NCBI GenBank assembly: GCA_017864995.1
Contig: GCA_017864995.1_4097.1
Length of the DNA: 64,000 bases
Origin: a phage
Reading direction: 5' to 3' (one strand)
In this document: piece by piece, positions 103-41,484 of the stretch
Numbering within the stretch: position 1 is the stretch's first letter
Layout: the number at the start of each line of letters is the position of its first letter
The notes under the pieces: generated by a model
What the model was told of the DNA's origin: nothing
Databases searched by the model: none
Seen by the model: the letters and a program-made list of their open reading frames with translations, nothing else
Program-made: the position numbers and the translations under genes

Positions 103-407
103 TGGACGCAGATAAATCAAACAGTATTCTTATTGATGTACAAACGAAGTTATTAGATGTTATGGAAATCATCAAAGATTTACCACAAGGATATCAGTTT
201 AAAGTTCGTGAAATGTTATCTTGTGCAGAAACGGTTGTGTCTATGTACAATGATGTGCAGCATGGAATTATCCCTGAAATTCTTCAAGATGGTCTAAATA
301 TTAACACAAAGATTCCAGCACAAGAGCCTGAAGAGGTTGTTCAGCCTGAACCAGAACCTCCTATACGTAAAGTACTGGATCTATCTGGGATTAAAATTAA
401 CATCTAA
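102..407 (+). CDS. hypothetical protein (101 aa)
   Basis: ORF track; tightly packed with neighbours; acidic C-terminus. Confidence 0.5.
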   Translation: MDADKSNSILIDVQTKLLDVMEIIKDLPQGYQFKVREMLSCAETVVSMYNDVQHGIIPEILQDGLNINTKIPAQEPEEVVQPEPEPPIRKVLDLSGIKINI

Positions 408-431
408 AAAATACAATCAATAGGAGAAGTA

Positions 432-581
432 ATGAGTAATCAAAAAATCGACTTAGTAGTAAAACTTCAAGAGATTCAAGCACTAGCTAAAGACCTTGAT
501 GAAAAACATGCAGCAGCAGTTGATTCACTGTGTGCAACAATCCTGACTGTTTTTACAGATTACGAAAAGAAATCTGATTAA
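432..581 (+). CDS. small hypothetical protein (49 aa)
   Basis: ATG 7 nt after TAGGAGAAGTAA SD (same SD context as sigma gene at 18673); followed by terminator hairpin at 594-621; below the ORF-track size cutoff. Confidence 0.45.
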   Translation: MSNQKIDLVVKLQEIQALAKDLDEKHAAAVDSLCATILTVFTDYEKKSD

Positions 582-593
582 ACATTACTTTAT

Positions 594-621
594 GCCCAGT
601 CTAGTACTGGGTATTTTTTTT
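594..621 (+). terminator. rho-independent terminator
   Basis: hairpin CCCAGT-CTAGT-ACTGGG followed by a run of 9 T. Confidence 0.6.
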
Positions 622-632
622 AAGGAAATAAA

Positions 633-1025
633 ATGACTGAATCAGAACTACACGAAATGATAGATTTCATTTATGAAATGGTGCAAGATAAAAATAACAT
701 TAATACAATTACTACTGGACCAAGACAAATTGGTAACCAAATGACATATTCGTTGTCCTTATGGTTACACCCGAACTTCAAGGTTGATTGTTTGTATTTT
801 CGTCCTGATATTGATGCTTATTATTTTGTAAATCATGATGCATTAATGAAACCAAATAAGCGTCCAGTTGATGATGCCTTTGTGACGCACCCATTTTATC
901 TGGCTGATTCCGAAGAAGATGAGTTTCAAAAGAACACAACGTTAAGCCCAGGTGAAATTTGCATCCCTTACACACTAAAAGATAAAATGATTTACATCAC
1001 AGAAGTTATGAAAACATGCTGGTAA
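633..1025 (+). CDS. hypothetical protein, member of EE-x-FQ-x-S motif family
   Basis: ORF track; C-proximal motif SEEDEFQKNTTL shared with 10 other ORFs in the window. Confidence 0.6.
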   Translation: MTESELHEMIDFIYEMVQDKNNINTITTGPRQIGNQMTYSLSLWLHPNFKVDCLYFRPDIDAYYFVNHDALMKPNKRPVDDAFVTHPFYLADSEEDEFQKNTTLSPGEICIPYTLKDKMIYITEVMKTCW

Positions 1026-1073
1026 GTGCAATGAAACTCTGATATAATACAAATAATGATAATAGGAGGATAT

Positions 1074-1292
1074 ATGAAATTTATTAATTTTGATATTTCT
1101 AAGGTCAAAGAATTATTTGTAAGAAATGCAGTTTATGATATCATGTTACATAACGGTACTGTACAAGAAGATGTTGTATTGTTTTCGTTTGATGGTGAAA
1201 ATCTCGAAACTATATATAAATTCAGCAACTTAGATGGTGACTTTTGGGAAACCAGTGCTGTTAAAATGTATAGAATTAAAAAGGAGCATTAA
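1074..1292 (+). CDS. hypothetical protein
   Basis: ORF track frame; start moved to ATG 1074, 4 nt after AGGAGG. Confidence 0.5.
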   Translation: MKFINFDISKVKELFVRNAVYDIMLHNGTVQEDVVLFSFDGENLETIYKFSNLDGDFWETSAVKMYRIKKEH

Positions 1293-1293
1293 T

Positions 1294-1782
1294 ATGCCAA
1301 TTCGTGGTGTACCAGAACCATTAATGGAAGTTATTAAGCATGTTCGCATTGGAGATCGAGAAGTTAATCTTCGCCGTAATAACATTTTTTACTTTAAAAC
1401 TTCAGAAATGAGTTCTGTACAGATTGTCATTGGTACATCTATTAAGATTACTCGTGTACTTGATGGTAGTACTGACTTCGTTGAATATAATGTACTTACT
1501 AATAAAGTAACGCATATATATAAATGGAGTGGGTATAAAACTATTAAGTATGAATTTGACTTAGCTAGAACTGAAGAAGAACGATTTATGCTGAGTACTA
1601 TCAATCCAGCAAACTATCCTGACCTTGATGCATTTTTGCTAATTTTAAAATTGTATAATGAAGCAAATCAGAAAGCCAAAGATTATGATAGAATCATGTA
1701 TGAACGCCGAAAAGAACGTGCACAAAAAAGTTATGATCTGTATGATAGCCCATACGTGAAATATAGTAAGGGGTCGAAATGA
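1294..1782 (+). CDS. hypothetical protein, EE-x-F motif family member
   Basis: ORF track frame; start at ATG 1294 after AAAGGAG; motif TEEERFMLSTI. Confidence 0.55.
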   Translation: MPIRGVPEPLMEVIKHVRIGDREVNLRRNNIFYFKTSEMSSVQIVIGTSIKITRVLDGSTDFVEYNVLTNKVTHIYKWSGYKTIKYEFDLARTEEERFMLSTINPANYPDLDAFLLILKLYNEANQKAKDYDRIMYERRKERAQKSYDLYDSPYVKYSKGSK

Positions 1783-2183
1783 ATAAAGAAGTTCAAATTA
1801 TCATAACTCCACCTATACAAAGTCTGGATGTATCCATTAGTGATTTTTTGGAAAAATACTATGAATGGTTTAATGAAGATTCAGTAATTTATAACCATTC
1901 ATTACCTGATGGTTTCGTTGAGCTTATTGAATTAAATGCAAAATCACTATACTTCTGTGTTGAATACAATGATTATATGACAGATGAAGCATATCGTTTT
2001 CGTTGTACATTGTATCCTAACCATTTTTCCATTGGTTATAAAGACTATCAGTACTGCACCACAAACTATAGTGTAGAGGAAGAATTTCAGTACAATTTAC
2101 TTTATCCTGATTTAGATTATACGATTGCAGTACTGTTGACTAAAATCATGGATTTTTATAAAGATAAATATAATGCAGCCTAA
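1779..2183 (+). CDS. hypothetical protein, EE-x-FQ motif family member
   Basis: ATGA start/stop overlap with upstream gene; motif VEEEFQYNLL. Confidence 0.55.
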   Translation: MNKEVQIIITPPIQSLDVSISDFLEKYYEWFNEDSVIYNHSLPDGFVELIELNAKSLYFCVEYNDYMTDEAYRFRCTLYPNHFSIGYKDYQYCTTNYSVEEEFQYNLLYPDLDYTIAVLLTKIMDFYKDKYNAA

Positions 2184-2358
2184 GACATTTGATGAGTGGT
2201 TTAATCTACACTATAATATAAATGCAGCAGATATATACTATTTTAAGCTTGAATTGTATATATCATTGCGTAACCCAATTGAGTACTATAACAACATTAT
2301 CAATTGTGATGATTTTGGTACATATTTTAGTATAGCAGTCATGGACAAAATAAGATGA
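2173..2358 (+). CDS. hypothetical protein (61 aa)
   Basis: ORF track; overlaps neighbours by a few nt. Confidence 0.4.
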   Translation: MQPKTFDEWFNLHYNINAADIYYFKLELYISLRNPIEYYNNIINCDDFGTYFSIAVMDKIR

Positions 2359-2525
2359 CACACAAAGAATGGTTAGATGAACTAAAATTTAAACATAATC
2401 CTTTTGGTTTTGGTATACGCCAAGGTCATTATGATGTGTTAAAAGATAAACAACTTTTCAAATCATTTGTACTTGATGAGGATAGTAATCACTGGTACAT
2501 CTATGAGCTTGCAATTAGGAAATAG
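2355..2525 (+). CDS. small protein MTHKEW... (56 aa), paralogue of the MTHEEWM mini-ORFs
   Basis: ATGA overlap with upstream stop; N-terminus MTHKEWLDEL resembles the three tandem ORFs at 3859-4345. Confidence 0.45.
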   Translation: MTHKEWLDELKFKHNPFGFGIRQGHYDVLKDKQLFKSFVLDEDSNHWYIYELAIRK

Positions 2526-2535
2526 AAGATATAGT

Positions 2536-2884
<349 letters not shown>

Positions 2885-2897
2885 CGAGGAATCCAAA

Positions 2898-3095
2898 GTG
2901 ACTAAAGCAGAACTTGTAGCATTATTGGAATCATATCCCGATGATGCATGTATTGAAGTTGTTCATAGTGCGAGACATTTTGACATTGAAGATGTAGTAC
3001 GTTATAATGACAAAGGTGTACTCATCATGGAACTATGTATTGGTGAAATGAAAACTGTACCCGAATCAGAAAAACGTAAAAATAGTAAACCGTAA
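2898..3095 (+). CDS. hypothetical protein (GTG start)
   Basis: ORF track; GAGGA SD upstream. Confidence 0.45.
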   Translation: MTKAELVALLESYPDDACIEVVHSARHFDIEDVVRYNDKGVLIMELCIGEMKTVPESEKRKNSKP

Positions 3096-3105
3096 GGAAA
3101 ATAAA

Positions 3106-3324
3106 ATGGAATCTACTCTATTAGAAGTTATTAACTCATTAAACGCTGGCGACAATGTTCAAGTACTCCTTCAGGGATACCGTGTAAAAGGTTCAGTAGT
3201 TTTAGTTAATGACACCACTGTTGTTGTAACTGAAACTAACCCGTTTGACAGTAATGAACTTGCTAATATCCATATTGATATTAAAAGTATTATTGGTGTT
3301 GGTGTAACTAAACCACAAGAATAA
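3106..3324 (+). CDS. hypothetical protein
   Basis: ORF track; AGGAAAATAAA-ATG context. Confidence 0.5.
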   Translation: MESTLLEVINSLNAGDNVQVLLQGYRVKGSVVLVNDTTVVVTETNPFDSNELANIHIDIKSIIGVGVTKPQE

Positions 3325-3618: not shown

Positions 3619-3632
3619 ATATTGGGACAGAC

Positions 3633-3751
<119 letters not shown>

Positions 3752-3756
3752 AAATC

Positions 3757-3856
<100 letters not shown>

Positions 3857-3858
3857 CC

Positions 3859-4019
<161 letters not shown>

Positions 4020-4023
<4 letters not shown>

Positions 4024-4180
4024 CACATGAAGAATGGATGAATGACATTAATTTTAGATATTCGGGTATCGGTAAATGGCTAAAGTATCATTGGGAATTC
4101 ATTTCAGAGCCACATCTGTATGATAAACTTATCAACGATCCAGCATATGAAATGTACTTAATTGAACTACTGGTACGAAC

Positions 4181-4184
<4 letters not shown>
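4020..4184 (+). CDS. mini-protein MTHEEWM family, copy 2 (54 aa)
   Basis: as copy 1; about 75% identical to copy 1 by eye. Confidence 0.5.
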
Positions 4185-4352
<168 letters not shown>

Positions 4353-4353
4353 G

Positions 4354-4807
<454 letters not shown>

Positions 4808-4835
4808 GTATCTTAATAACAGAAGGTATATTGAA

Positions 4836-5075
4836 ATGAGTAAGTATTTTGTGAGTTATAGTTATAATGTATCACAAAAGGTTCCACGTGGTGATGGAAT
4901 GGGCTGGTCATATGATACATATACTTTAAATGAGTCATGTATCATCGAATTGCAAGAAAAAGACCTTGACATTTTAAAAATCAAACAATATATTCTTGAT
5001 GTTGAATTGGCACATCGTACCGACAACTGTCCAGATGTAAACAACGTCAACATCTTAGTACTAACCAAAGTATAA
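4836..5075 (+). CDS. hypothetical protein
   Basis: ORF track frame; start at ATG 4836 downstream of the promoter. Confidence 0.5.
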   Translation: MSKYFVSYSYNVSQKVPRGDGMGWSYDTYTLNESCIIELQEKDLDILKIKQYILDVELAHRTDNCPDVNNVNILVLTKV

Positions 5076-5081
5076 GATAAA

Positions 5082-5115
<34 letters not shown>

Positions 5116-5470
5116 GAATTCCACAATCAGACGTATATGGTGTAAGTTACGTCGATGTAATCCAGAACAAGATCTCTGGTACTCTAGGAAGTGGTGAATG
5201 TTAACCTAGACGGGTTTGATAATTGGACGATAGGCAATTATTACTTGACTAGCAGGTTTAAACTAGAGGTGACAGTCCTTTACCAAACTGGAAAACCGGA
5301 TGGACTTTTATTTAAAAGGGTAAGGCGTGGAAATATGTTTACAGTAGTTGCTTTTAGTAGCCTGTACGCCCCACGTCAAGGTAGCCGAAAGGCAAGTTAA
5401 AACGGGTGGTTATAAAGCTGAATTAACAGCGGCGTTTAAAAGCGTCACCATCCATTTTTTTAATTAAAGT
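5116..5470 (+). ncRNA. candidate structured non-coding RNA or long leader transcribed from promoter 5085-5113
   Basis: about 350 bp between promoter and next SD with no SD-preceded ORF; GNRA-like CGAAAG hairpin GGTAGCCGAAAGGCAAG; ends in T-run at 5453-5461; ORF-track ORF 5191..5400 has no SD. Confidence 0.3.
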
Positions 5471-5477
5471 TGGTGAT

Positions 5478-6297
<820 letters not shown>

Positions 6298-6310
6298 ATA
6301 GGAAATTAAA

Positions 6311-6496
6311 GTGCAACTTTTAATTCTTTCAATATTGTATATTATTATAATGGTTCCGATATCAATACGTTTAATTACACTTGAACGATTTTTATCGAAA
6401 CATGGAAATAGATCTATGATCTTTGTACCAATCGGGTTGATATTGTTTGGTATATTTTCATTTATAATGGGAATTAACGCTACATTCATTTCATAG
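6311..6496 (+). CDS. small hydrophobic protein (GTG start)
   Basis: ORF track; hydrophobic segments. Confidence 0.4.
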   Translation: MQLLILSILYIIIMVPISIRLITLERFLSKHGNRSMIFVPIGLILFGIFSFIMGINATFIS

Positions 6497-6505
6497 GAAA
6501 CAAAT

Positions 6506-7036
<531 letters not shown>

Positions 7037-7081
7037 GATTCCCGATTCAGTAGCTTATAAAGCAGTTCCGTGTGTGCCTAT

Positions 7082-7173
<92 letters not shown>

Positions 7174-7192
7174 AGAGGTACTTCGAGTATGC

Positions 7193-7318
<126 letters not shown>

Positions 7319-7320
7319 TA

Positions 7321-7523
<203 letters not shown>

Positions 7524-7574
7524 GCCTCCCCTCAATGCGAAAGAGTATGGAGACTTGTTGGTTATCTTACTTCT

Positions 7575-7657
<83 letters not shown>

Positions 7658-7660
7658 TCA

Positions 7661-7733
<73 letters not shown>

Positions 7734-7750
7734 CAAAATAAAGGTACACT

Positions 7751-16658: not shown

Positions 16659-17080
16659 GGGGATACAATAAGATTTGTATTTTTGTATTTTTAGTTTGTG
16701 CAATCAATACATTTGGATATTACTGTACTGAAAACAACATTTCATATGGTTTAAATCCTTTGTGGTTTACAATTGCCAATGTAGCACAAATTGGTATTGC
16801 TGTTATGTCTGCACTTATGTTCTGTCCAATTGTCACTATGGATACTGATCATGAAAGGCTTGGATTTATCCGTGATACTGGAGACGAACCTTACAGTAGA
16901 TTGATTGTGTTGTATCCATTTATTGTTATTTTAGGTACTAACATCCAACTTGGGTCTTTATCTAATAGTGTTACTTCAGCAGCCATTACAGTCTTTGCAT
17001 TCACATTTTTTATGGTACACAAATCAGTACTCAAATGGCACATCACCAAAATGGCAGAGAAAGGTACGGAAAACAGTTGA
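16655..17080 (+). CDS. predicted membrane protein
   Basis: ATGA overlap; multiple hydrophobic segments. Confidence 0.5.
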   Translation: MRGYNKICIFVFLVCAINTFGYYCTENNISYGLNPLWFTIANVAQIGIAVMSALMFCPIVTMDTDHERLGFIRDTGDEPYSRLIVLYPFIVILGTNIQLGSLSNSVTSAAITVFAFTFFMVHKSVLKWHITKMAEKGTENS

Positions 17081-17139
17081 CGTGAGTTATTGAGTCATAT
17101 ATAATTATTACATCAAAACTGGGAAATGGTAAGGAACTT

Positions 17140-17391
17140 ATGAACATCGATAAGGTCAAAGAACTTAGTGAAGCACTAATTAAGAACGAAGAAGCTTGTG
17201 AAGAACTTCGCAGTACTATCAAAGTTGAGTACGCACGTCTTCAAGCTATGCTTCAGGAATCCGAATGGGTTGTAACTAAATCCATCGAAGCTATCTATAA
17301 GGATATCGAATCCCTTTTCAATAAGAAAAGTAAGTTTGAATCTGATTCATATAACAAGCGTAAAGAATTGAATTCAGTACTCGGTATCTAA
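17140..17391 (+). CDS. hypothetical coiled-coil-like protein
   Basis: ORF track. Confidence 0.5.
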   Translation: MNIDKVKELSEALIKNEEACEELRSTIKVEYARLQAMLQESEWVVTKSIEAIYKDIESLFNKKSKFESDSYNKRKELNSVLGI

Positions 17392-17397
17392 AAGTAT

Positions 17398-17426
17398 TTG
17401 ACTTAACCAATAACATGGAGTACAAT
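17398..17426 (+). promoter_or_regulatory. sigma70-like promoter
   Basis: TTGACT - 17 nt - TACAAT. Confidence 0.5.
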
Positions 17427-17465
17427 GTGCTCCTACTTTAATCAAAATCCTAAAAGGAAAACATT

Positions 17466-17726
17466 ATGAAATCTATCCTCGTTGCTGTAAACCTGGTTGC
17501 TTCCCCATCTTTCAACTTCAAACAAGTTGTTGCTGATAATCTGAAGAACATTTGCCCTAACGCTGAATTGACTTTCTGTGTGTTTGATTCAGAAAAAGTA
17601 ACAACTGTTGATCTAAACTATCTTTTGAACGAAGTACAAAGTATTTCTGGTGAAAGTAATTTGGAAGTACTGAACTCCGTTGCTGATGACTATGATGATA
17701 CACTTGTAATTTCGGAGAAATTCTAA
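17466..17726 (+). CDS. hypothetical acidic protein
   Basis: ORF track; AAAGGAAA SD. Confidence 0.5.
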   Translation: MKSILVAVNLVASPSFNFKQVVADNLKNICPNAELTFCVFDSEKVTTVDLNYLLNEVQSISGESNLEVLNSVADDYDDTLVISEKF

Positions 17727-17731
17727 ATCCA

Positions 17732-18151
17732 ATGCTTAGATTTATACATTACTTAATCAGTAAGGTTTTTGGGTATCAAACTGTGGAGGACAAGGCTAAT
17801 CTAGCACACAAAATCTTCACAGCTTTGTGTTCTGGTGATTATCCTGTATTGAATAAGTACTGTAAATCTAAAGCATGTATTGACATAATGGCACTTCGTA
17901 TATATGAGTGCCAGTTCAATAGATACAATTTTTACCAGTACAGATATGATAAAGATGATTTTGATAGCATTGTAATGCTAAAGAATTTATGTAATAATAA
18001 AAAGAATATTCATATATCTGAATTTGTTGCATTGTATTTTTATTTAAAAAGTTCATTGTATATGAATTCAATGCAACGATTTGATACTAGAATTAATGTA
18101 TTCAACGATAAAGAATTTTATATCTATGATAAATTTTTAGATAAGGTTTAA
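17732..18151 (+). CDS. hypothetical protein
   Basis: ORF track. Confidence 0.5.
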   Translation: MLRFIHYLISKVFGYQTVEDKANLAHKIFTALCSGDYPVLNKYCKSKACIDIMALRIYECQFNRYNFYQYRYDKDDFDSIVMLKNLCNNKKNIHISEFVALYFYLKSSLYMNSMQRFDTRINVFNDKEFYIYDKFLDKV

Positions 18152-18152
18152 T

Positions 18153-18650
18153 ATGACGACTGTTTATATTGATAAACGCTTGGGAGTATTACTTACTGAT
18201 TCAAAAGTGACATCAACTGAGCAACGTTCATTTTTGAACCTATTCCCGTTGAAGCCAAAACTTAGTTATGGTGTAGTTTCACAAAAAACATTGTATGTAC
18301 ACGACCGACTGTTTAGTGCTTGCGGTGAAGTTAGTGAAATTAACAAAGTACTGAGATACTTGATTTCACAAGAGACTGTGATACCAGACCGCAAGGCGAG
18401 TTGTCACTGTGTTCTTGTGTCAAAAGATTACATCATTCACTTAATCGTTAATAAGGGTAAGTTTACCAAGAAGATTGATTATCTCCATAATGATTATACA
18501 TTCTTTATGGGTAGTGGTGGTGAATACATGCTTGATGCAGCAGTACATGAAGAGTATAATACTCTTCTTGATAAGGTATTTGATACCTTCATGGATGTTC
18601 ATAACCATGATATCTATACCGATGATAATATTAATGTATACCGTTTTTGA
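18153..18650 (+). CDS. hypothetical protein
   Basis: ORF track. Confidence 0.5.
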   Translation: MTTVYIDKRLGVLLTDSKVTSTEQRSFLNLFPLKPKLSYGVVSQKTLYVHDRLFSACGEVSEINKVLRYLISQETVIPDRKASCHCVLVSKDYIIHLIVNKGKFTKKIDYLHNDYTFFMGSGGEYMLDAAVHEEYNTLLDKVFDTFMDVHNHDIYTDDNINVYRF

Positions 18651-18672
18651 TTTCATTCATTAGGAGAAGTAA

Positions 18673-19638
18673 GTGAAAAAGCTTGATTTAAATGCAATTT
18701 CTGAAGAAGTACTGGATGAGTGTTTTGCTAGTGAAGAAGTCAACGTATTAGAGGCTCTTGATTCCGTCGAAGAAGAAGAACATGACGGTCACAAGTTTGA
18801 GAAACCAAAAACAGGTATCAGCTTAACTCGCCCTAAAGGGATAACGAATGAAATGCTCATCCAAGCAGTGCGTGATGGTATTGACGTTGAAAAGAACATT
18901 GACCTTTTGGTTCGCTACAACTATCCAATGGTAGTAAGTGTTGCACGTAAGTGTACATGTTTTATCCCATTTGAAGATAAGATTTCTTATGGTGTTGAAG
19001 GTTTAATGCGAGCAATTCATACGTTCGACACTACCAAAAATGTTAAGTTCATTACATATGCAACAACAACTGTGTACATGACAATCTATAACGAAAGTGC
19101 AGATGCTAATTATCTAGTGCATTTCCCACGTTATATGAGTGTTAATAACATTTATGTGAAACGTTGTGTAGAAGAGTATCAAAGGAAACATGGTAAATAC
19201 CCAACTCCTGAGATGGTGTCAAAAGAGACTGGTATTGAGATTCAACACGTTAAGAATTGTCTAACTTACAGTAACACTTATGTAGCATTGAATATGAAAA
19301 TGAGTAATGATTCAGAAAGTACATTATCTGACATTGTTACTTCAGTTGAACCTGATTACAACTTAGGCGTAGAAACTGTCAGTACCCCACTGGTACAAAG
19401 TATTGCAGAAATGATGAGTAACCTATCTGCCAAAGACCGTGAATTGATTGAACGTGTACATGGTATTGGTTCTTATTCTGAACCCGAAACGCTACGAGAA
19501 ATCATTGAGAGTGGTTTTGAAGATGAGAAGGGTAAGGTCATGACTGCTCGTTCTTCATTGCACCGTAAGTACTCTGAAGCAATGGAACGACTGCGTAAGA
19601 TGGTTAAGACAAAAGGTTATGAGTTCGAAGATTTTTAA
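18673..19638 (+). CDS. sigma-70 family RNA polymerase sigma factor (phage-encoded)
   Basis: segment VEGLMRAIHTFDTTKNVKFITYATTTVYMTIY resembles sigma70 region 2 (EGNxGLMKAVxKFDxxRGxKFSTYATWWIRQ); C-terminal ETLREIIE...TARSSLHRKYSEAMERLRK resembles region 4 HTH; GTG start after TAGGAGAAGTAA. Confidence 0.6.
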   Translation: MKKLDLNAISEEVLDECFASEEVNVLEALDSVEEEEHDGHKFEKPKTGISLTRPKGITNEMLIQAVRDGIDVEKNIDLLVRYNYPMVVSVARKCTCFIPFEDKISYGVEGLMRAIHTFDTTKNVKFITYATTTVYMTIYNESADANYLVHFPRYMSVNNIYVKRCVEEYQRKHGKYPTPEMVSKETGIEIQHVKNCLTYSNTYVALNMKMSNDSESTLSDIVTSVEPDYNLGVETVSTPLVQSIAEMMSNLSAKDRELIERVHGIGSYSEPETLREIIESGFEDEKGKVMTARSSLHRKYSEAMERLRKMVKTKGYEFEDF

Positions 19639-19645
19639 GATTAAA

Positions 19646-19672
19646 GGGTTGACTTCGGTCAACCCTTTTTTT
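19646..19672 (+). terminator. rho-independent terminator (GGGTTGAC-TTCG-GTCAACCC family)
   Basis: perfect 8-bp stem, TTCG loop, 7 T. Confidence 0.75.
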
Positions 19673-20299
19673 ATGGGACAAATTTATTAATGGTGATACA
19701 ATGATCTATGTACAATCACAATGACAGTACTGGTACTGACAATCTTCCCCTACTTCACTTGAAAATGTAAAGGATAGATGAGCTTTTCATTGTAGCGAAC
19801 AGCAAAAGAAACCCGTTAGATGTGGGCATAGTTTGAACCCCTCACGGCAATGCGGCTGTATAAAGAACCACGTTAGGATAGCTGGTGGTTCCTCGATAGA
19901 CATATAAGGATAACACCTTACGAATTATCTAAGGGAGAGTTATCGAATTTTGTACAGGAAAGTTGCGTCCAAAATTTGAGTACTCACATTAAGTATTTGA
20001 TTGCATAGATACTTAATGAAGATACACTATGTTTAAAAGTGTAGACCGTCATATGAAACTGAAGTAGAGAGAAACAGGATGACCCGCTTTCGCACTCGTT
20101 ATGAGTAATCTTCAATGCAATAGCTCTGATACCATCAGCGTCAAATTTCCCTCCGTGCGGGGGGAAGAAAAATCCCTTCCTCAAATCCCGTCAATATTAA
20201 AAGTCCTTGACAGTTATGATTCATTCGCGTAGAATACGTAGTATTAGAAGCGAACAGACATCTCGAAGAGATGGATGATTAACCATCGAGGAATATCTA
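19673..20299 (+). ncRNA. large intergenic region, candidate non-coding RNA or regulatory region
   Basis: about 630 bp with no SD-preceded ORF in a genome otherwise more than 90% coding; G/C-rich hairpins such as CCCTCCGTGCGGGGGGAAG; promoter at 20207-20235 near its 3' end. Confidence 0.3.
20207..20235 (+). promoter_or_regulatory. sigma70-like promoter
   Basis: TTGACA - 17 nt - TAGAAT. Confidence 0.5.
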
Positions 20300-20509
20300 A
20301 TGAATTCAGTAATCTTTTTAATTATTGCTCTTTCACCACAATCTGGCGTACAAATCACCCCAATGAATTCAATGAATCAATGCATTGCAGTACGTGACAG
20401 TACGTATGAACAAGTAAACAGCGTTTCACTTAGAACAGTTGGTGAAGAATTAATGTGGTGTTACAATAGTAATACTAAAGAAAAACTAATTGTTGGACAA
20501 ACAGAATGA
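20300..20509 (+). CDS. hypothetical protein
   Basis: ORF track; GAGGAATATCTA-ATG context. Confidence 0.4.
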   Translation: MNSVIFLIIALSPQSGVQITPMNSMNQCIAVRDSTYEQVNSVSLRTVGEELMWCYNSNTKEKLIVGQTE

Positions 20510-20736
20510 GTTATGGTGTTCGTTTTGAGATTCGTTCTATTGTTATCAATGACGAGAAACAAGCATCGTTGGATGGCGATATACGAGAACTATATCTATC
20601 ATGTATCCGTGCAAAATCTGAAGCAGATGTCTTAGTACAAATGTATAGTTTTAACTTTTCAAATGGATTCTATTTGGTACGAGTTATTGAAGTGAAAAAA
20701 GTACTTATTGGTTGTAGCATAGAAGGATTAATGTAA
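20506..20736 (+). CDS. hypothetical protein
   Basis: ATGA overlap. Confidence 0.45.
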   Translation: MSYGVRFEIRSIVINDEKQASLDGDIRELYLSCIRAKSEADVLVQMYSFNFSNGFYLVRVIEVKKVLIGCSIEGLM

Positions 20737-20737
20737 A

Positions 20738-21532
20738 ATGAGCACTATAGATGAATTGATTCGCCGGAATTCAAAATACTACGACCCATCAGAAATTGTC
20801 GGCAACATTACTAAATCTGAGTTCGGCCCAAATACTCGAAAACTCATTCATGTAATGTCACGTGATGGCTTTAAATGTGATTGTTGTGGTGAATCCAATG
20901 TGGTATTCACTTTACATAAGCACAGTACTAAAGACCGTTATAAATTCAGACCTTATGTACTTAAAGGGAAACGCCTTGTACGCATGACGTTAGACCATAA
21001 TGTACTGGACTGTCTTCAGGGCGGTAATGATAAAGAGAACATGACCGCATTGTGTGAGGATTGTAACGCATTACGCCAGCATAAGTTTGCTGAGTACAGT
21101 GAGTTTAAGCACTGGTATCATAACGCTGATCGTTCTATCGAGCCTGACGTTAACTACTGCTTCATTGAGTATATTAAGAATGCTAAAGATACGTACATTC
21201 TTAAATCAATGTCACCTATTACAGTGTTCCCTGAGAATCTATTCAGTACTATGCAGCGTGATTTTAAACGTGGTATCATTAATGCATTCAAACATTTAGA
21301 CAAAGGTATCAAGCACTTTGAGGTGCAATGCTTAAATGAAGGAATGAATCGTTTAGTACAAATTTACATGAAATCATTTATAGGTGTTGACACCGCACGT
21401 CTACCAGTATATAATTACTTTATTGAAAGCGAAGAAGGTGAATCACTTCGTGATTATGGTGAAAGATTTAATAATAAAGTTTTCACTGCAATCGCAAACG
21501 AGATTCATTACTATAAACCATATGTAATTTAA
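20738..21532 (+). CDS. HNH endonuclease-like protein
   Basis: CDCCGE ... LDHNVLDCLQGGNDKENMTALCEDCNALRQHK: CxxC, H-N, CxxC arrangement typical of HNH nucleases. Confidence 0.6.
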   Translation: MSTIDELIRRNSKYYDPSEIVGNITKSEFGPNTRKLIHVMSRDGFKCDCCGESNVVFTLHKHSTKDRYKFRPYVLKGKRLVRMTLDHNVLDCLQGGNDKENMTALCEDCNALRQHKFAEYSEFKHWYHNADRSIEPDVNYCFIEYIKNAKDTYILKSMSPITVFPENLFSTMQRDFKRGIINAFKHLDKGIKHFEVQCLNEGMNRLVQIYMKSFIGVDTARLPVYNYFIESEEGESLRDYGERFNNKVFTAIANEIHYYKPYVI

Positions 21533-27937: not shown

Positions 27938-28129
27938 ATGTTGATTTATCAATGTGATAACATTCGTGTTATGCAGCATCCCTACTTACAAATCTTTGAT
28001 GTGCAGCAGTATATGGAAGGTGATGATCCAAGAACCTATGGTCGTAAGTATGATTACTTCACTGTAAAGCAGTGTCATAACATCAAAGAAGTACGACAAT
28101 TAGTTCAAGAACTTCAAAATAAAGGTTGA
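27938..28129 (+). CDS. hypothetical protein
   Basis: start at ATG 27938 after GAGGACTAAACAT. Confidence 0.45.
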   Translation: MLIYQCDNIRVMQHPYLQIFDVQQYMEGDDPRTYGRKYDYFTVKQCHNIKEVRQLVQELQNKG

Positions 28130-28155
28130 CTTCGGTCAACCTTTTTTGTTATAAT
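28123..28155 (+). terminator. terminator hairpin with embedded -35 box plus downstream -10 (terminator/promoter cassette)
   Basis: AGGTTGAC-TTCG-GTCAACCT + T-run; TTGACT 28126-28131, 18-nt spacer, TATAAT 28150-28155. Confidence 0.7.
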
Positions 28156-31214: not shown

Positions 31215-31325
31215 TTTGACTTTGGAACAACCATTTCATATGTGATATAATCTTAAGTGTCTGTTGAAATAAACAGCACATGAAGTATAAATATTAAAGT
31301 AATTTATCTCTTTAAGGAGTATGAA

Positions 31326-31709: not shown

Positions 31710-31715
31710 TTAAAA

Positions 31716-31750
31716 GGGGTTGACTTCAGTCAGCCCTTTGTCGTATAATA
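31716..31750 (+). terminator. terminator/promoter cassette (variant)
   Basis: GGGGTTGAC-TTCA-GTCAGCCC hairpin; TTGACT in stem, TATAAT 31745-31750 (19-nt spacer). Confidence 0.55.
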
Positions 31751-32475: not shown

Positions 32476-32496
32476 TGGTATAGTACAGTGAAAATA

Positions 32497-32528
32497 GGGT
32501 TGACTTCGGTCAACCTTTTCTTTATACT
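32497..32528 (+). terminator. terminator/promoter cassette
   Basis: GGGTTGAC-TTCG-GTCAACC hairpin then T-run; candidate -10 TATACT 32523-32528. Confidence 0.65.
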
Positions 32529-34068: not shown

Positions 34069-34076
34069 ACATTTAA

Positions 34077-34104
34077 AAGGTTGACTTCGGTCAACCTTTT
34101 TTTG
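34077..34104 (+). terminator. rho-independent terminator (same hairpin family)
   Basis: AAGGTTGAC-TTCG-GTCAACCTT followed by 7 T. Confidence 0.75.
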
Positions 34105-34752: not shown

Positions 34753-34758
34753 AAGAAA

Positions 34759-34792
34759 AGGGTTGACTTCGGTCGGCCCTTTTTGCTATAAT
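34759..34792 (+). terminator. terminator/promoter cassette
   Basis: GGGTTGAC-TTCG-GTCGGCCC hairpin + T-run; TTGACT 34763-34768, 18 nt, TATAAT 34787-34792. Confidence 0.7.
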
Positions 34793-38976: not shown

Positions 38977-39390
38977 ATGAAGAAGTGTATCACGTGTAAT
39001 ATTGAAAAAGACATTAGTGAATTTGGTATAAGAAGTGATACTGGGAAACATAGAAATACATGCAAAGGTTGTAGTAATATTACCAGTAAGAGAACCAGAA
39101 ATAAAAAAACTGATGTAAAAACACTTGAAGAAATCAAAAGAAAAAATAAAGATTTCATGACCAGAGTTAAATCATTTTATGGTTGTAGTGTTTGTATGAT
39201 GAAGTATCCAGAATGTTTAGACTTTCACCATCTTGACCCTAATACCAAAGAACATACACCAAGTTCTATGTTCAGTAAAAGTCGAGATGCTATCAAAGAT
39301 GAAATTCGAAAGTGTATGATTCTTTGTTCTAATCACCATCGCATGGTACATTCTGGTAGACTATGTTTGATTGAAAGAAAAAAGGGTTGA
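38977..39390 (+). CDS. HNH endonuclease-like protein
   Basis: CITCNIEKD ... CKGC ... LDFHHLDPNTK ... CSNHHRMVH: CxxC, HH, N, CxxxHH pattern of HNH nucleases. Confidence 0.6.
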   Translation: MKKCITCNIEKDISEFGIRSDTGKHRNTCKGCSNITSKRTRNKKTDVKTLEEIKRKNKDFMTRVKSFYGCSVCMMKYPECLDFHHLDPNTKEHTPSSMFSKSRDAIKDEIRKCMILCSNHHRMVHSGRLCLIERKKG

Positions 39391-39416
39391 CTTCGGTCAG
39401 CCCTTTTTGCTATAAT
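39384..39416 (+). terminator. terminator/promoter cassette
   Basis: GGGTTGAC-TTCG-GTCAGCCC hairpin + T-run; TTGACT 39387-39392, 18 nt, TATAAT 39411-39416. Confidence 0.7.
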
Positions 39417-41443: not shown

Positions 41444-41451
41444 TAAGAAAA

Positions 41452-41484
41452 GGGTTGACTTCGGTCGGCCCTTTTTGCTATAAT
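41452..41484 (+). terminator. terminator/promoter cassette
   Basis: GGGTTGAC-TTCG-GTCGGCCC hairpin + T-run; TTGACT 41455-41460, 18 nt, TATAAT 41479-41484. Confidence 0.7.

Follow-up and report, generated by a model that had tools for sequence, protein, structure and literature searches.

A sigma-70 family factor and an adjacent putative gene for a large structured RNA in a Rak2-like jumbo phage

The phage DNA analysed here (64,000 nucleotides (nt) of contig GCA_017864995.1_4097.1, assembly GCA_017864995.1; hereafter the window) carried on its + strand, at 18673..19638, an open reading frame (ORF) with a GTG start encoding a 321-aa sigma-70 family factor, identified from the ORF itself, profile searches and the predicted fold. 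It was followed by a region of about 660 bp (19639-20299) with only short, unconserved ORFs and 7-12 stops per frame in the window copy. The original prediction had reported both a phage-encoded sigma-70 factor and a large non-coding region beside it, and both were found at this locus. The non-coding region consisted of a terminator, a promoter (19674-19702), about 490 nt without a conserved ORF, and then a separate sigma70 promoter. The closest relatives of the window were Rak2-like jumbo myoviruses of 350-385 kb, and the 3 kb around the locus shared 99.3% identity with Escherichia phage WPEC5, 97-98% with WPEC3, Ecwhy_1, fEgEco12 and CMSTMSU, and 83-84% with 121Q, PBECO4 and slurp01 (Asteriusvirus).

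Rather than a promoter-rich spacer, the region appeared to be the gene for a large structured RNA with a promoter of its own. This putative gene of about 490 nt extended from approximately 19709 to 20199 on the + strand, its 5' end being placed from the -10 element and its 3' end lying either at a U-tract (~20146-20148) or at the end of the conserved block (20199), an uncertainty due to terminator-like hairpins that occur before the last conserved block. The promoter (19674..19702, +) comprised TGGGAC (19674-19679), a 17-nt spacer that includes an extended -10 TG (19694-19695), and TACAAT (19697-19702). Its design was identical at 33 of the 33 alignable copies of the RNA, reading T (28 copies) G (33) R R A C, 14 nt, TG (33) n TATAAT. 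Downstream, a consensus sigma70 promoter (TTGACA-17-TAGAAT; 20207..20235, +; consensus match) would serve the genes at 20300-21532, and an equivalent TTGAC promoter followed the RNA in CBB, GAP32, BF, Yen9-04 and XbC2. Because the downstream genes have this separate promoter, the RNA is best regarded as its own transcription unit.

At the nucleotide level, the core of the RNA (about 19748-20204) was 90-91% identical in phages of the 121Q group and about 70% identical in CBB, GAP32, Serratia BF, and Erwinia, Yersinia, Salmonella (7t3/Munch), Klebsiella and Xanthomonas phages (blastn), always within a gap of 600-840 bp that was unannotated or held short ORFs on varying strands. An alignment of 13 such gaps showed long invariant blocks, with compensatory changes evident in the segments between them. 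Scanning IMG/VR, metagenomes and GTDB genomes by pattern and then applying nhmmer recovered 37 distinct full-length copies in the first scan, and the metagenome scan together with a second viral pattern added 41 matching stretches, some of them cut by contig ends. The jumbo-phage genomes examined possessed 3-5 copies each; self-BLAST of the 64-kb window gave no second copy, only the repeated terminator being matched. Across the Rak2-like genera examined, the paralogues occupied syntenic positions. One was located 0-5 kb on the downstream side of the sigma gene, immediately next to it in Asteriusvirus and RaK2 and 2-5 kb away in other genera; another preceded the DNA methyltransferase/NrdB genes, and a third was flanked by endonuclease VII and the baseplate hub. 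Bacterial copies were found in the Escherichia coli LR-29-1 chromosome (L043, 4847-5430), on an island that adjoins ffs and has integrase remnants, the promoter of this copy being TGGGAT-N14-TGATATAAT; in Serratia sp. 2723 (L059, 5340-5899), after a large serine recombinase; in an Enterobacteriaceae metagenome-assembled genome (L054, 6418-7028), beside a CI-like repressor; and, as a partial copy, in Serratia sp. L9 (L058). The full-length bacterial copies were located at the edges of integrative elements, in stretches of 1-1.4 kb without an annotated gene.

The structure was derived from 35 copies with a median pairwise identity of 66%, using the RNAalifold consensus and a covariation scan, and contained 17 helices, two of them pseudoknots. 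Helices placed on the window from the alignment (+ strand) included 19799-803/19855-59, 19813-16/19844-47, 19865-70/19886-91, 19905-08/19917-20 and 19987-98/20007-18 and, in the 3' part, 20060-64/20110-14, 20067-71/20087-91, 20094-96/20104-06 and 20152-56/20160-64. The two pseudoknots (19718-22/19789-93 and 20001-06/20115-20, +) were both backed by compensatory changes. Standard pairs occupied 96.4% of the cells on the structure, compared to 77.3% after shuffling; 55 of the 81 pairs had changes on both sides, and individual helices showed 3-5 pair types. The covariation score (0.496) exceeded that of shuffled alignments (0.176; reached by 0 of 500) and that obtained with partners slid by 1-3 columns (0.07-0.11); the structure was scored on the alignment it came from, which favours it over the slid controls, and the margin was large. 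The + strand was assigned as the folded one because G.U cells outnumbered A.C cells in the pairs (203 and 26, respectively).

One hairpin module, with the stem AAAUUUUG/CAAAAUUU and the loop ACAAUAUAGAUCCGUC, followed the UAAGGGAG block in most copies and lay inside another helix in one subfamily (alignment columns ~345-395 versus ~520-562; window 19944-19983), while the E. coli copy possessed both. Peripheral tertiary-contact elements of large RNAs shift position in this way, and the module may thus be a movable element for tertiary or intermolecular contacts. Many copies also had terminator-like hairpins with U-runs, either in the 5' leader between promoter and core (L025, L032, L021, L014, L017, L015, L030, L010, L041 and L037) or before the last conserved block, CCCC..GGGGGGAUGAAA..CAACAAAUCUCGUCA (L007, L019, L022, L043, L035, L040, L038 and L033).

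Searches against known RNAs gave no counterpart. With Rfam 15 at gathering score, only six tRNAs were detected in the window and no family on the RNA; at E<=10, the segment 19600-20350 gave just weak terminator-like matches far under gathering score; and at E<=0.5, five divergent copies gave nothing on the RNA. The families covered by these searches include 6S, RNase P, tmRNA, group I and II introns, ROOL, GOLLD, OLE, HEARO and riboswitches. ARAGORN found no tRNA or tmRNA in the non-coding region. No description of the RNA was found in the published literature searched, it was not annotated as an RNA in the GenBank records examined, and a large survey of phage csRNAs contained motifs of 29-151 nt only (PMC10690425). 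On these comparisons, the RNA, with its strongly supported structure, represents a new family that matches no described one.

In size and organization, the RNA resembles ROOL and GOLLD (PMC12286853), OLE, HEARO and raiA, which likewise have 400-800 nt, many helices, pseudoknots, extended unpaired stretches that are conserved, no protein partner known in the neighbourhood and a presence in phages or prophages. It differs from them in having no covariance-model similarity (no Rfam 15 family on six divergent copies, E=0.5-10) and in its host range, which is that of Enterobacterales jumbo phages. ROOL and GOLLD are often found near tRNA genes; the nearest tRNA genes in the window were 12-16 kb away from the RNA gene. 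The phage PA5oct, a distant relative of the clade, encodes a highly expressed, RNA-seq-supported ncRNA002 of 451 nt (PMC7318152), similar in size to the present RNA but not homologous to it.

The sigma gene possessed a Shine-Dalgarno sequence (AGGAG, 18662-18666) 6 nt 5' of its start, and its homologues begin with an identical MKKLDLN. As predicted, region 2 was recognisable, with a match to Pfam Sigma70_r2 (PF04542) on residues 79-141 (37.2 bits, cut-off 24), and Sigma70_r3 (PF04539) matched residues 162-224 (45.4 bits, cut-off 25.3). Region 3 is present in sigma groups 1-3 and absent from extracytoplasmic function (ECF) sigmas. PHROG 351, 'RNA polymerase sigma factor', covered the whole ORF (E=4.6e-48), and the top phmmer matches among PDB sequences were Mycobacterium tuberculosis SigB/SigA, RpoS and RpoD (1e-17 to 1e-14), with the RpoS alignment extending to residue 319. 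The AF2 (AlphaFold2) model, built with 18 sequences, had three confident helical domains (58-146, 153-198 and 240-313; predicted local distance difference test, pLDDT, 76-91), and its best Foldseek matches were sigma-S chains in holoenzyme structures, with 266-278 columns aligned. Over phmmer and Foldseek together, the leading matches were sigma-S and group-1 sigmas, aligned on 250-280 columns. The region-4-like C-terminus of the original prediction was borne out by the RpoS alignment, the helices at 240-313 and Foldseek, and regions 4.1 and 4.2 aligned with primary sigmas apart from an 8-residue insertion; it was not borne out by the Sigma70_r4 profile, as Pfam region 4 (PF04545/PF08281) gave no match even at E<=10, and PF04545 was absent from 17 of 17 phage homologues and present in the bacterial matches P0018-20. 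Given the Pfam region 2 and 3, PHROG, PDB, AF2 and Foldseek results, the ORF is a sigma2-sigma3-sigma4 member of the sigma-70 family, with an acidic disordered N-terminus (residues 1-50), sigma2 (~58-146), sigma3 (~153-198) and sigma4 (~240-313), the last with the 8-residue insertion in the turn of the helix-turn-helix (HTH; ~280-292).

Alignment with three bacterial primary sigmas bearing all Pfam regions, with residues numbered as in E. coli sigma70, showed a conserved core-binding segment in region 2.2. Region 2.3 read FITYATTTVYM in the phage compared to FSTYATWWIRQ: F427 and Y430 were kept, Y425 was replaced by V, W433/W434 by T/T and R436/Q437 by Y/M. The expectation that the DNA-melting residues of region 2 would be retained thus held for the F427 and Y430 equivalents but not for the W dyad, which was nowhere conserved and was replaced across the phage clade (TT, SS, VS or AA). 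The RQ pair was retained in more distant clade members. The A(-11) pocket residues F419/Y430 were kept, while the extended -10 contacts H455/E458 were changed to Y/V. W433/W434 are likewise missing from the alternative sigmas of groups 3 and 4, so that absence of the dyad does not exclude a sigma function. In region 4.2, the turn of the HTH contained the insertion (SGFEDEKGKVMTA) and the recognition helix read ARSSLHRKY instead of the TRERIRQIE of primary sigmas. The pattern of insertion (G-x-x-D-x-K/N-G-K) and helix (S/A-R-S-S-x-H-R-K/R-Y) recurred in the orthologues of 121Q, CBB, 7t3 and RaK2; both are characters of the clade rather than signs of decay. In the available parts of the literature on the clade sigma, there was no mention of the region 4.2 insertion or of the loss of the W dyad.

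All NCBIfam equivalog models failed, with scores far under the curated cut-offs (RpoD_Cterm 95.5, cut-off 354; RpoS 79.8, cut-off 378.7; SigBFG 68.1, cut-off 234; FliA_WhiG 61.4, cut-off 189.6), so that the factor is no RpoD, RpoS or FliA equivalog and those GenBank names are over-specific. It shares with RpoS and group 3 sigmas (FliA, SigF) the arrangement sigma2-sigma3-sigma4 without region 1.1, and with group 3 also the lack of W433/W434, but differs from RpoS, FliA and SigF in sequence (23-28% identity), in the region 4.2 insertion and in an acidic 50-aa N-terminus unrelated to region 1.1. Phage sigmas that, as part of a temporal programme, bring host core RNA polymerase to a class of phage promoters include T4 gp55, SPO1 gp28 and gp33/34, and phiEco32 gp36. 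Among these, T4 gp55 consists of little more than sigma2 and serves late promoters that have only a -10, with the motif TATAAATA, whereas the present factor has all three domains.

By tblastn, each of 83 matching phage records contained one copy of the sigma gene, including those of Asteriusvirus, Alcyoneusvirus (RaK2, K64-1), Mimasvirus (GAP32, CBB, XbC2), Eneladusvirus (BF, Yen9-04) and the Munch/7t3 group, and most of the 83 name it 'RNA polymerase sigma factor'. Identity at the amino acid level was 99% with WPEC3/WPEC5, 59% with 121Q/PBECO4 and 33-40% with RaK2, GAP32, CBB, BF and Yen9-04, at the same length. Between the WPEC5 and 121Q sub-clades, the protein (59% identical) and the adjoining RNA gene (90-91% at the DNA level) showed a sharp contrast in rate. 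The gene is thus already known: it is an ordinary, single-copy, clade-wide gene of Rak2-like phages, nothing different in kind from CBB_513, its GAP32 counterpart, 121Q gp167 or RaK2 ORF244, the 'complete' sigma of group 2 jumbo phages. The accessible text on this phage group describes it as being without its own RNA polymerase and with sigma factors, among which RpoD-like sigmas were noted by Iyer et al. (PMC7824862). In the portions consulted of Buttimer et al. [quoted passage not shown] The literature found on the clade sigma consisted of annotation, with no experiment, promoter, timing or biochemistry.

The sigma gene was the last of a series of contiguous + strand ORFs (17140-19638) headed by a sigma70-type promoter (TTGACG-17-TATAAT, 11/12; 17077..17105, +), with a second one at 17398-17426 (TTGACT-17-TACAAT, 10/12; +), both being consensus matches. 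Promoter-like sites were no more numerous in this stretch than after shuffling (22, with a shuffled mean of 22.5), though the 11-12/12 matches fell in intergenic gaps. The intrinsic terminator of the operon (19643..19675, +) consisted of an 11-bp stem (AAAGGGTTGAC/GTCAACCCTTT), a TTCG loop and a T-run; the site at 19643-19668 was the sole terminator-like site within 17-22.5 kb, and none lay between the operon promoters and 19643. Based on the promoter-consensus matches and the operon layout, early reading of the sigma gene by the host sigma70-RNA polymerase would fit.

The original prediction had named the conserved box upstream of the RCC1-like paralogues as a candidate target of the sigma factor. 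The RCC1-like array of about 15 members (PHROG 4219) occupied ~44800-64000 on the - strand, and many members were preceded by a cassette (e.g. 62767-62837, 61572-61644 and 54302-54377, -; upstream-sequence comparison) formed by a terminator, GCCAGTACT..AGTACTGGC with a T-run, followed by GATTAAATATAGTATAAT and then AAAGGAGG. No -35-like element was present at 16-18 nt, where the T-run of the terminator is located, and the box looks like a -10-only, T4-late-like element. A different class, TGRRAC-N14-TGn-TAYAAT, had three sites in the window (3623-3651, 19674-19702 and 31223-31251): besides the RNA promoter, these were TGGGAC-N17-TATAAT with TG (3623..3651, +), 11 nt upstream of tRNA-Ser(TGA) (3662-3751), and a TGGAAC promoter (31223-31251, +; pattern match). 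At the RNA copies, the -35 variants were TGAAAC in Mimasvirus and Eneladusvirus and TGGGAC/TGAGAC in Asteriusvirus.

In the CBB paper, three promoter motifs were reported: RpoD-like, a variant with the -35 TGAAACG, and ATAAATA before structural genes (PMC5259590). There, the 'divergent RpoD-like' class of CBB/GAP32 (-35 TGAAACG, -10 TATA) has 11 of 18 sites upstream of ORFs CBB_258-329, many of them for DNA synthesis, and CBB and GAP32 also encode a separate gp55-like late sigma, with an ATAAATA/T4-late motif preceding their structural genes (PMC5259590). The TGAAACG class has the same architecture as the promoter at 19674-19702 and those of the RNA copies. The CBB/GAP32 sites, as far as the source was available, were reported before protein-coding genes, whereas here the class also precedes a stable-RNA family and a tRNA gene, always with the extended -10 TG. 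TGRRAC-N14-TGnTATAAT is put forward as the best candidate target class of the sigma factor, and it may serve stable-RNA genes.

In the proposed mechanism, the sigma factor would most likely bind host core RNA polymerase through its conserved region 2.1/2.2 and sigma4, and would redirect it to phage promoters whose -10 is TATAAT-like and whose -35 is not that of the host; this is proposed from the retention of F419/Y430, the rewritten recognition helix of region 4.2 and the 8-residue insertion in its HTH turn. The RNA would most likely act in trans as a stable, complex-folded molecule, whether a ribozyme, a ribonucleoprotein scaffold or an RNA-only assembly, as suggested by its size and pseudoknots, by the long stretches that are both invariant and unpaired, and by the absence of any constant protein neighbour. 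The joint explanation, held to be reasonably probable, is that the locus combines an early sigma factor that would retarget host RNA polymerase, with TGRRAC as candidate promoter class, and a separate, adjacent gene of about 490 nt for a trans-acting RNA. A more ambitious version is tentative at best: here the RNA would be a new ornate class (ribozyme, ROOL/GOLLD-like assembly or origin primer), essential enough to be kept in 3-5 copies, and the sigma would be dedicated to the TGRRAC promoters of the RNA and the phage tRNAs, in a phage-private 'stable RNA' programme.

For the sigma factor, a role at the RCC1 box, as a late or array-specific promoter class, is improbable. The box is real and highly conserved before at least 6 paralogues (..GATTAAATATAGTATAA(T/C)..AAAGGAGG), and a changed -10 specificity is conceivable from the lost W dyad and the altered region 2.4 residues (YM for RQ). 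It is nevertheless a poor candidate, since an element with only a -10 and no -35 is an ill fit to a factor that retains a complete, conserved sigma4 and elaborates it with a clade-specific insertion; moreover, the RCC1 motif resembles the ATAAATA/T4-late consensus of CBB/GAP32, phages that encode a separate gp55-like late sigma (PMC5259590), and a factor of that type would be the natural candidate for such an element. It is also unlikely that the factor serves mainly as a competitor or decoy, occupying host core RNA polymerase (or an anti-sigma or partner) and shutting off host sigma70 with little promoter specificity of its own. Such a role would agree with the loss of the W433/W434 wedge, of H455/E458 and of most -35-contacting residues, with the fast evolution of the protein between sub-clades whose RNA gene is 91% identical, and with the acidic, region 1.1-like character of its N-terminus, but the helix S/A-R-S-S-[LIV]-H-R-K/R-Y and the insertion G-x-x-D-x-K-G-K are kept clade-wide, as expected of a DNA-contacting surface, and sigma3 is intact; the missing W dyad is also a feature of groups 3 and 4.

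The ~500-bp element could alternatively act in cis, as an origin of replication at which the promoter gives rise to a structured primer or R-loop RNA, in the manner of ColE1 RNA II or T4 oriF/oriG. An origin role would explain the 3-5 copies at syntenic places (by the sigma, DNA methyltransferase/NrdB and endonuclease VII-baseplate hub genes), and would agree with the invariant G6 tract and C-rich partner at the 3' end, with the copies by recombinase or repressor genes at integrative-element edges, and with a promoter class that the CBB paper places upstream of DNA-synthesis genes (PMC5259590). A primer, however, would not need the complex tertiary fold indicated by invariant unpaired stretches, two covarying pseudoknots and a shifting hairpin module, and the window had no AT-rich unwinding element or iterons adjoining the RNA and no skew change at 19.7 kb; an origin is accordingly given a low probability. 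Very improbable, finally, is that the region regulates the downstream genes in cis as a leader or attenuator, or that it encodes the annotated small proteins. In several paralogues a terminator-like hairpin with a U-run does follow the promoter or precede the 3' block, yet a consensus sigma70 promoter separates the RNA from the next gene, and the downstream genes are non-homologous across paralogues and genera. Small proteins of 30-70 aa are annotated over the RNA in the records of WPEC5 (CDS0181-0183), GAP32 (GAP32_503A), RaK2 (ORF245) and 7t3 (7t3_0445-0447), and short ORFs also in that of Kaldavass (CDS0100-0102), but the longest ORFs over the copies vary in strand, position and length (29-84 aa) and none is conserved; these 'hypothetical protein' ORFs are probably spurious, because their strand and position differ between records. 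The UE-S1 record labels part of the RNA gene as 'repeat_region'.

Several observations weigh against the favoured explanation of a retargeting sigma factor and a separate trans-acting RNA. For the sigma factor, they include the missing Pfam region 4 match and the clade-wide replacement of the W dyad given above. The extended -10 of the TGRRAC promoters is perfect, and GGGACA at 16 nt matches TTGACA at 4 of 6 positions in this phage, so that host sigma70 may read them unaided; the E. coli chromosome copy has the same promoter type with no phage sigma annotated within the 10 kb examined. The correspondence between region 4.2 and the -35 variant across genera is not clean either, with R in GGGAC and TTGAAC phages and K in CBB; co-variation of helix and -35 was not used as evidence, as the pattern was unclean and the independent lineages too few. 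For the RNA, several helices never vary, so covariation says nothing on them, and the single-sequence folding energy was unremarkable (z=-1.7 for the + strand, -2.5 for the - strand) and thus uninformative as a sign of structure or strand, the G.U and A.C counts being used instead. No transcriptome of any phage of the clade was found in the literature searched, and PA5oct ncRNA001/002, which as homologues would have given expression evidence, were not matched by nhmmer with the family profile (best E about 1).

Elsewhere in the window (G+C ~35%, genes on the + strand over the first ~45 kb or so and on the - strand beyond), six tRNA genes (Ser x2, Met, Asn, Thr x2; 3662-7734, +) were found by ARAGORN, as by Rfam. 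The sigma terminator sequence (AAAGGGTTGACTTCGGTCAACCCTTT) recurred as 8 near-identical + strand hairpins (19643-19668, 28120-28145, 31714-31739, 32494-32519, 34075-34100, 34757-34782, 39381-39406 and 41449-41474), where 0 are expected by chance. In those at 28120, 34757, 39381 and 41449, the stem placed TTGACT 17 nt ahead of TG(C/T)TATAAT, and at these four sites one stretch of ~45 bp appears to act as both terminator and consensus sigma70 promoter for the next gene. Just 5' of the sigma gene, a 165-aa gene (18153..18650, +) matched PHROG 24804 (1.8e-86, no function given) and, weakly, PHROG 1040 'peptidase HslV family' (2.8e-6), and carries the name HslV in the fEgEco12 and Turkey3 records; a protease expressed from the transcript of the sigma gene might have a part in taking over the host.

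Beyond the RNA gene, after two small genes, a free-standing HNH endonuclease of 264 aa was encoded (20738-21532, +; PHROG 35175, 2.8e-149). A HEARO-like pairing of the RNA with this endonuclease was rejected, as the proteins of ~265 aa after the RNA in GAP32 and CBB are unrelated to it; RNA-nuclease pairing was also ruled out by the lack of Pfam domains in common and by the different neighbours of the paralogues. According to the fEgEco12 paper, Ecwhy_1 lacks both the sigma (Gp519) and an HNH endonuclease, Gp520 (PMC13070987). Gp520 is taken to be the HNH gene adjoining the locus, and since the locus DNA stands, with 98.3% identity, right at the beginning of the Ecwhy_1 record (303-3303), the reported absence is likely an annotation or record-end effect.

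By itself, the sigma gene adds little, being already annotated in relatives, and the points worth recording are that it is no RpoD, RpoS or FliA orthologue, that the HTH presumed to read the -35 has a clade-specific insertion, and that the RCC1 box is an unlikely target. The putative RNA matters more: in a well-sampled group of jumbo phages that are therapeutic candidates, all genomes examined keep several diverged copies of it, each at a fixed position. Large, complex-folded RNAs of such size are rare, and RNase P, group II introns, OLE and ROOL/GOLLD each opened new biology. As the E. coli phages that carry it can be cultured and its promoter is defined, transcript mapping, structure probing, cryo-EM and knock-outs would be feasible, and the RNA gene would also offer a concrete test of sigma function in jumbo phages.

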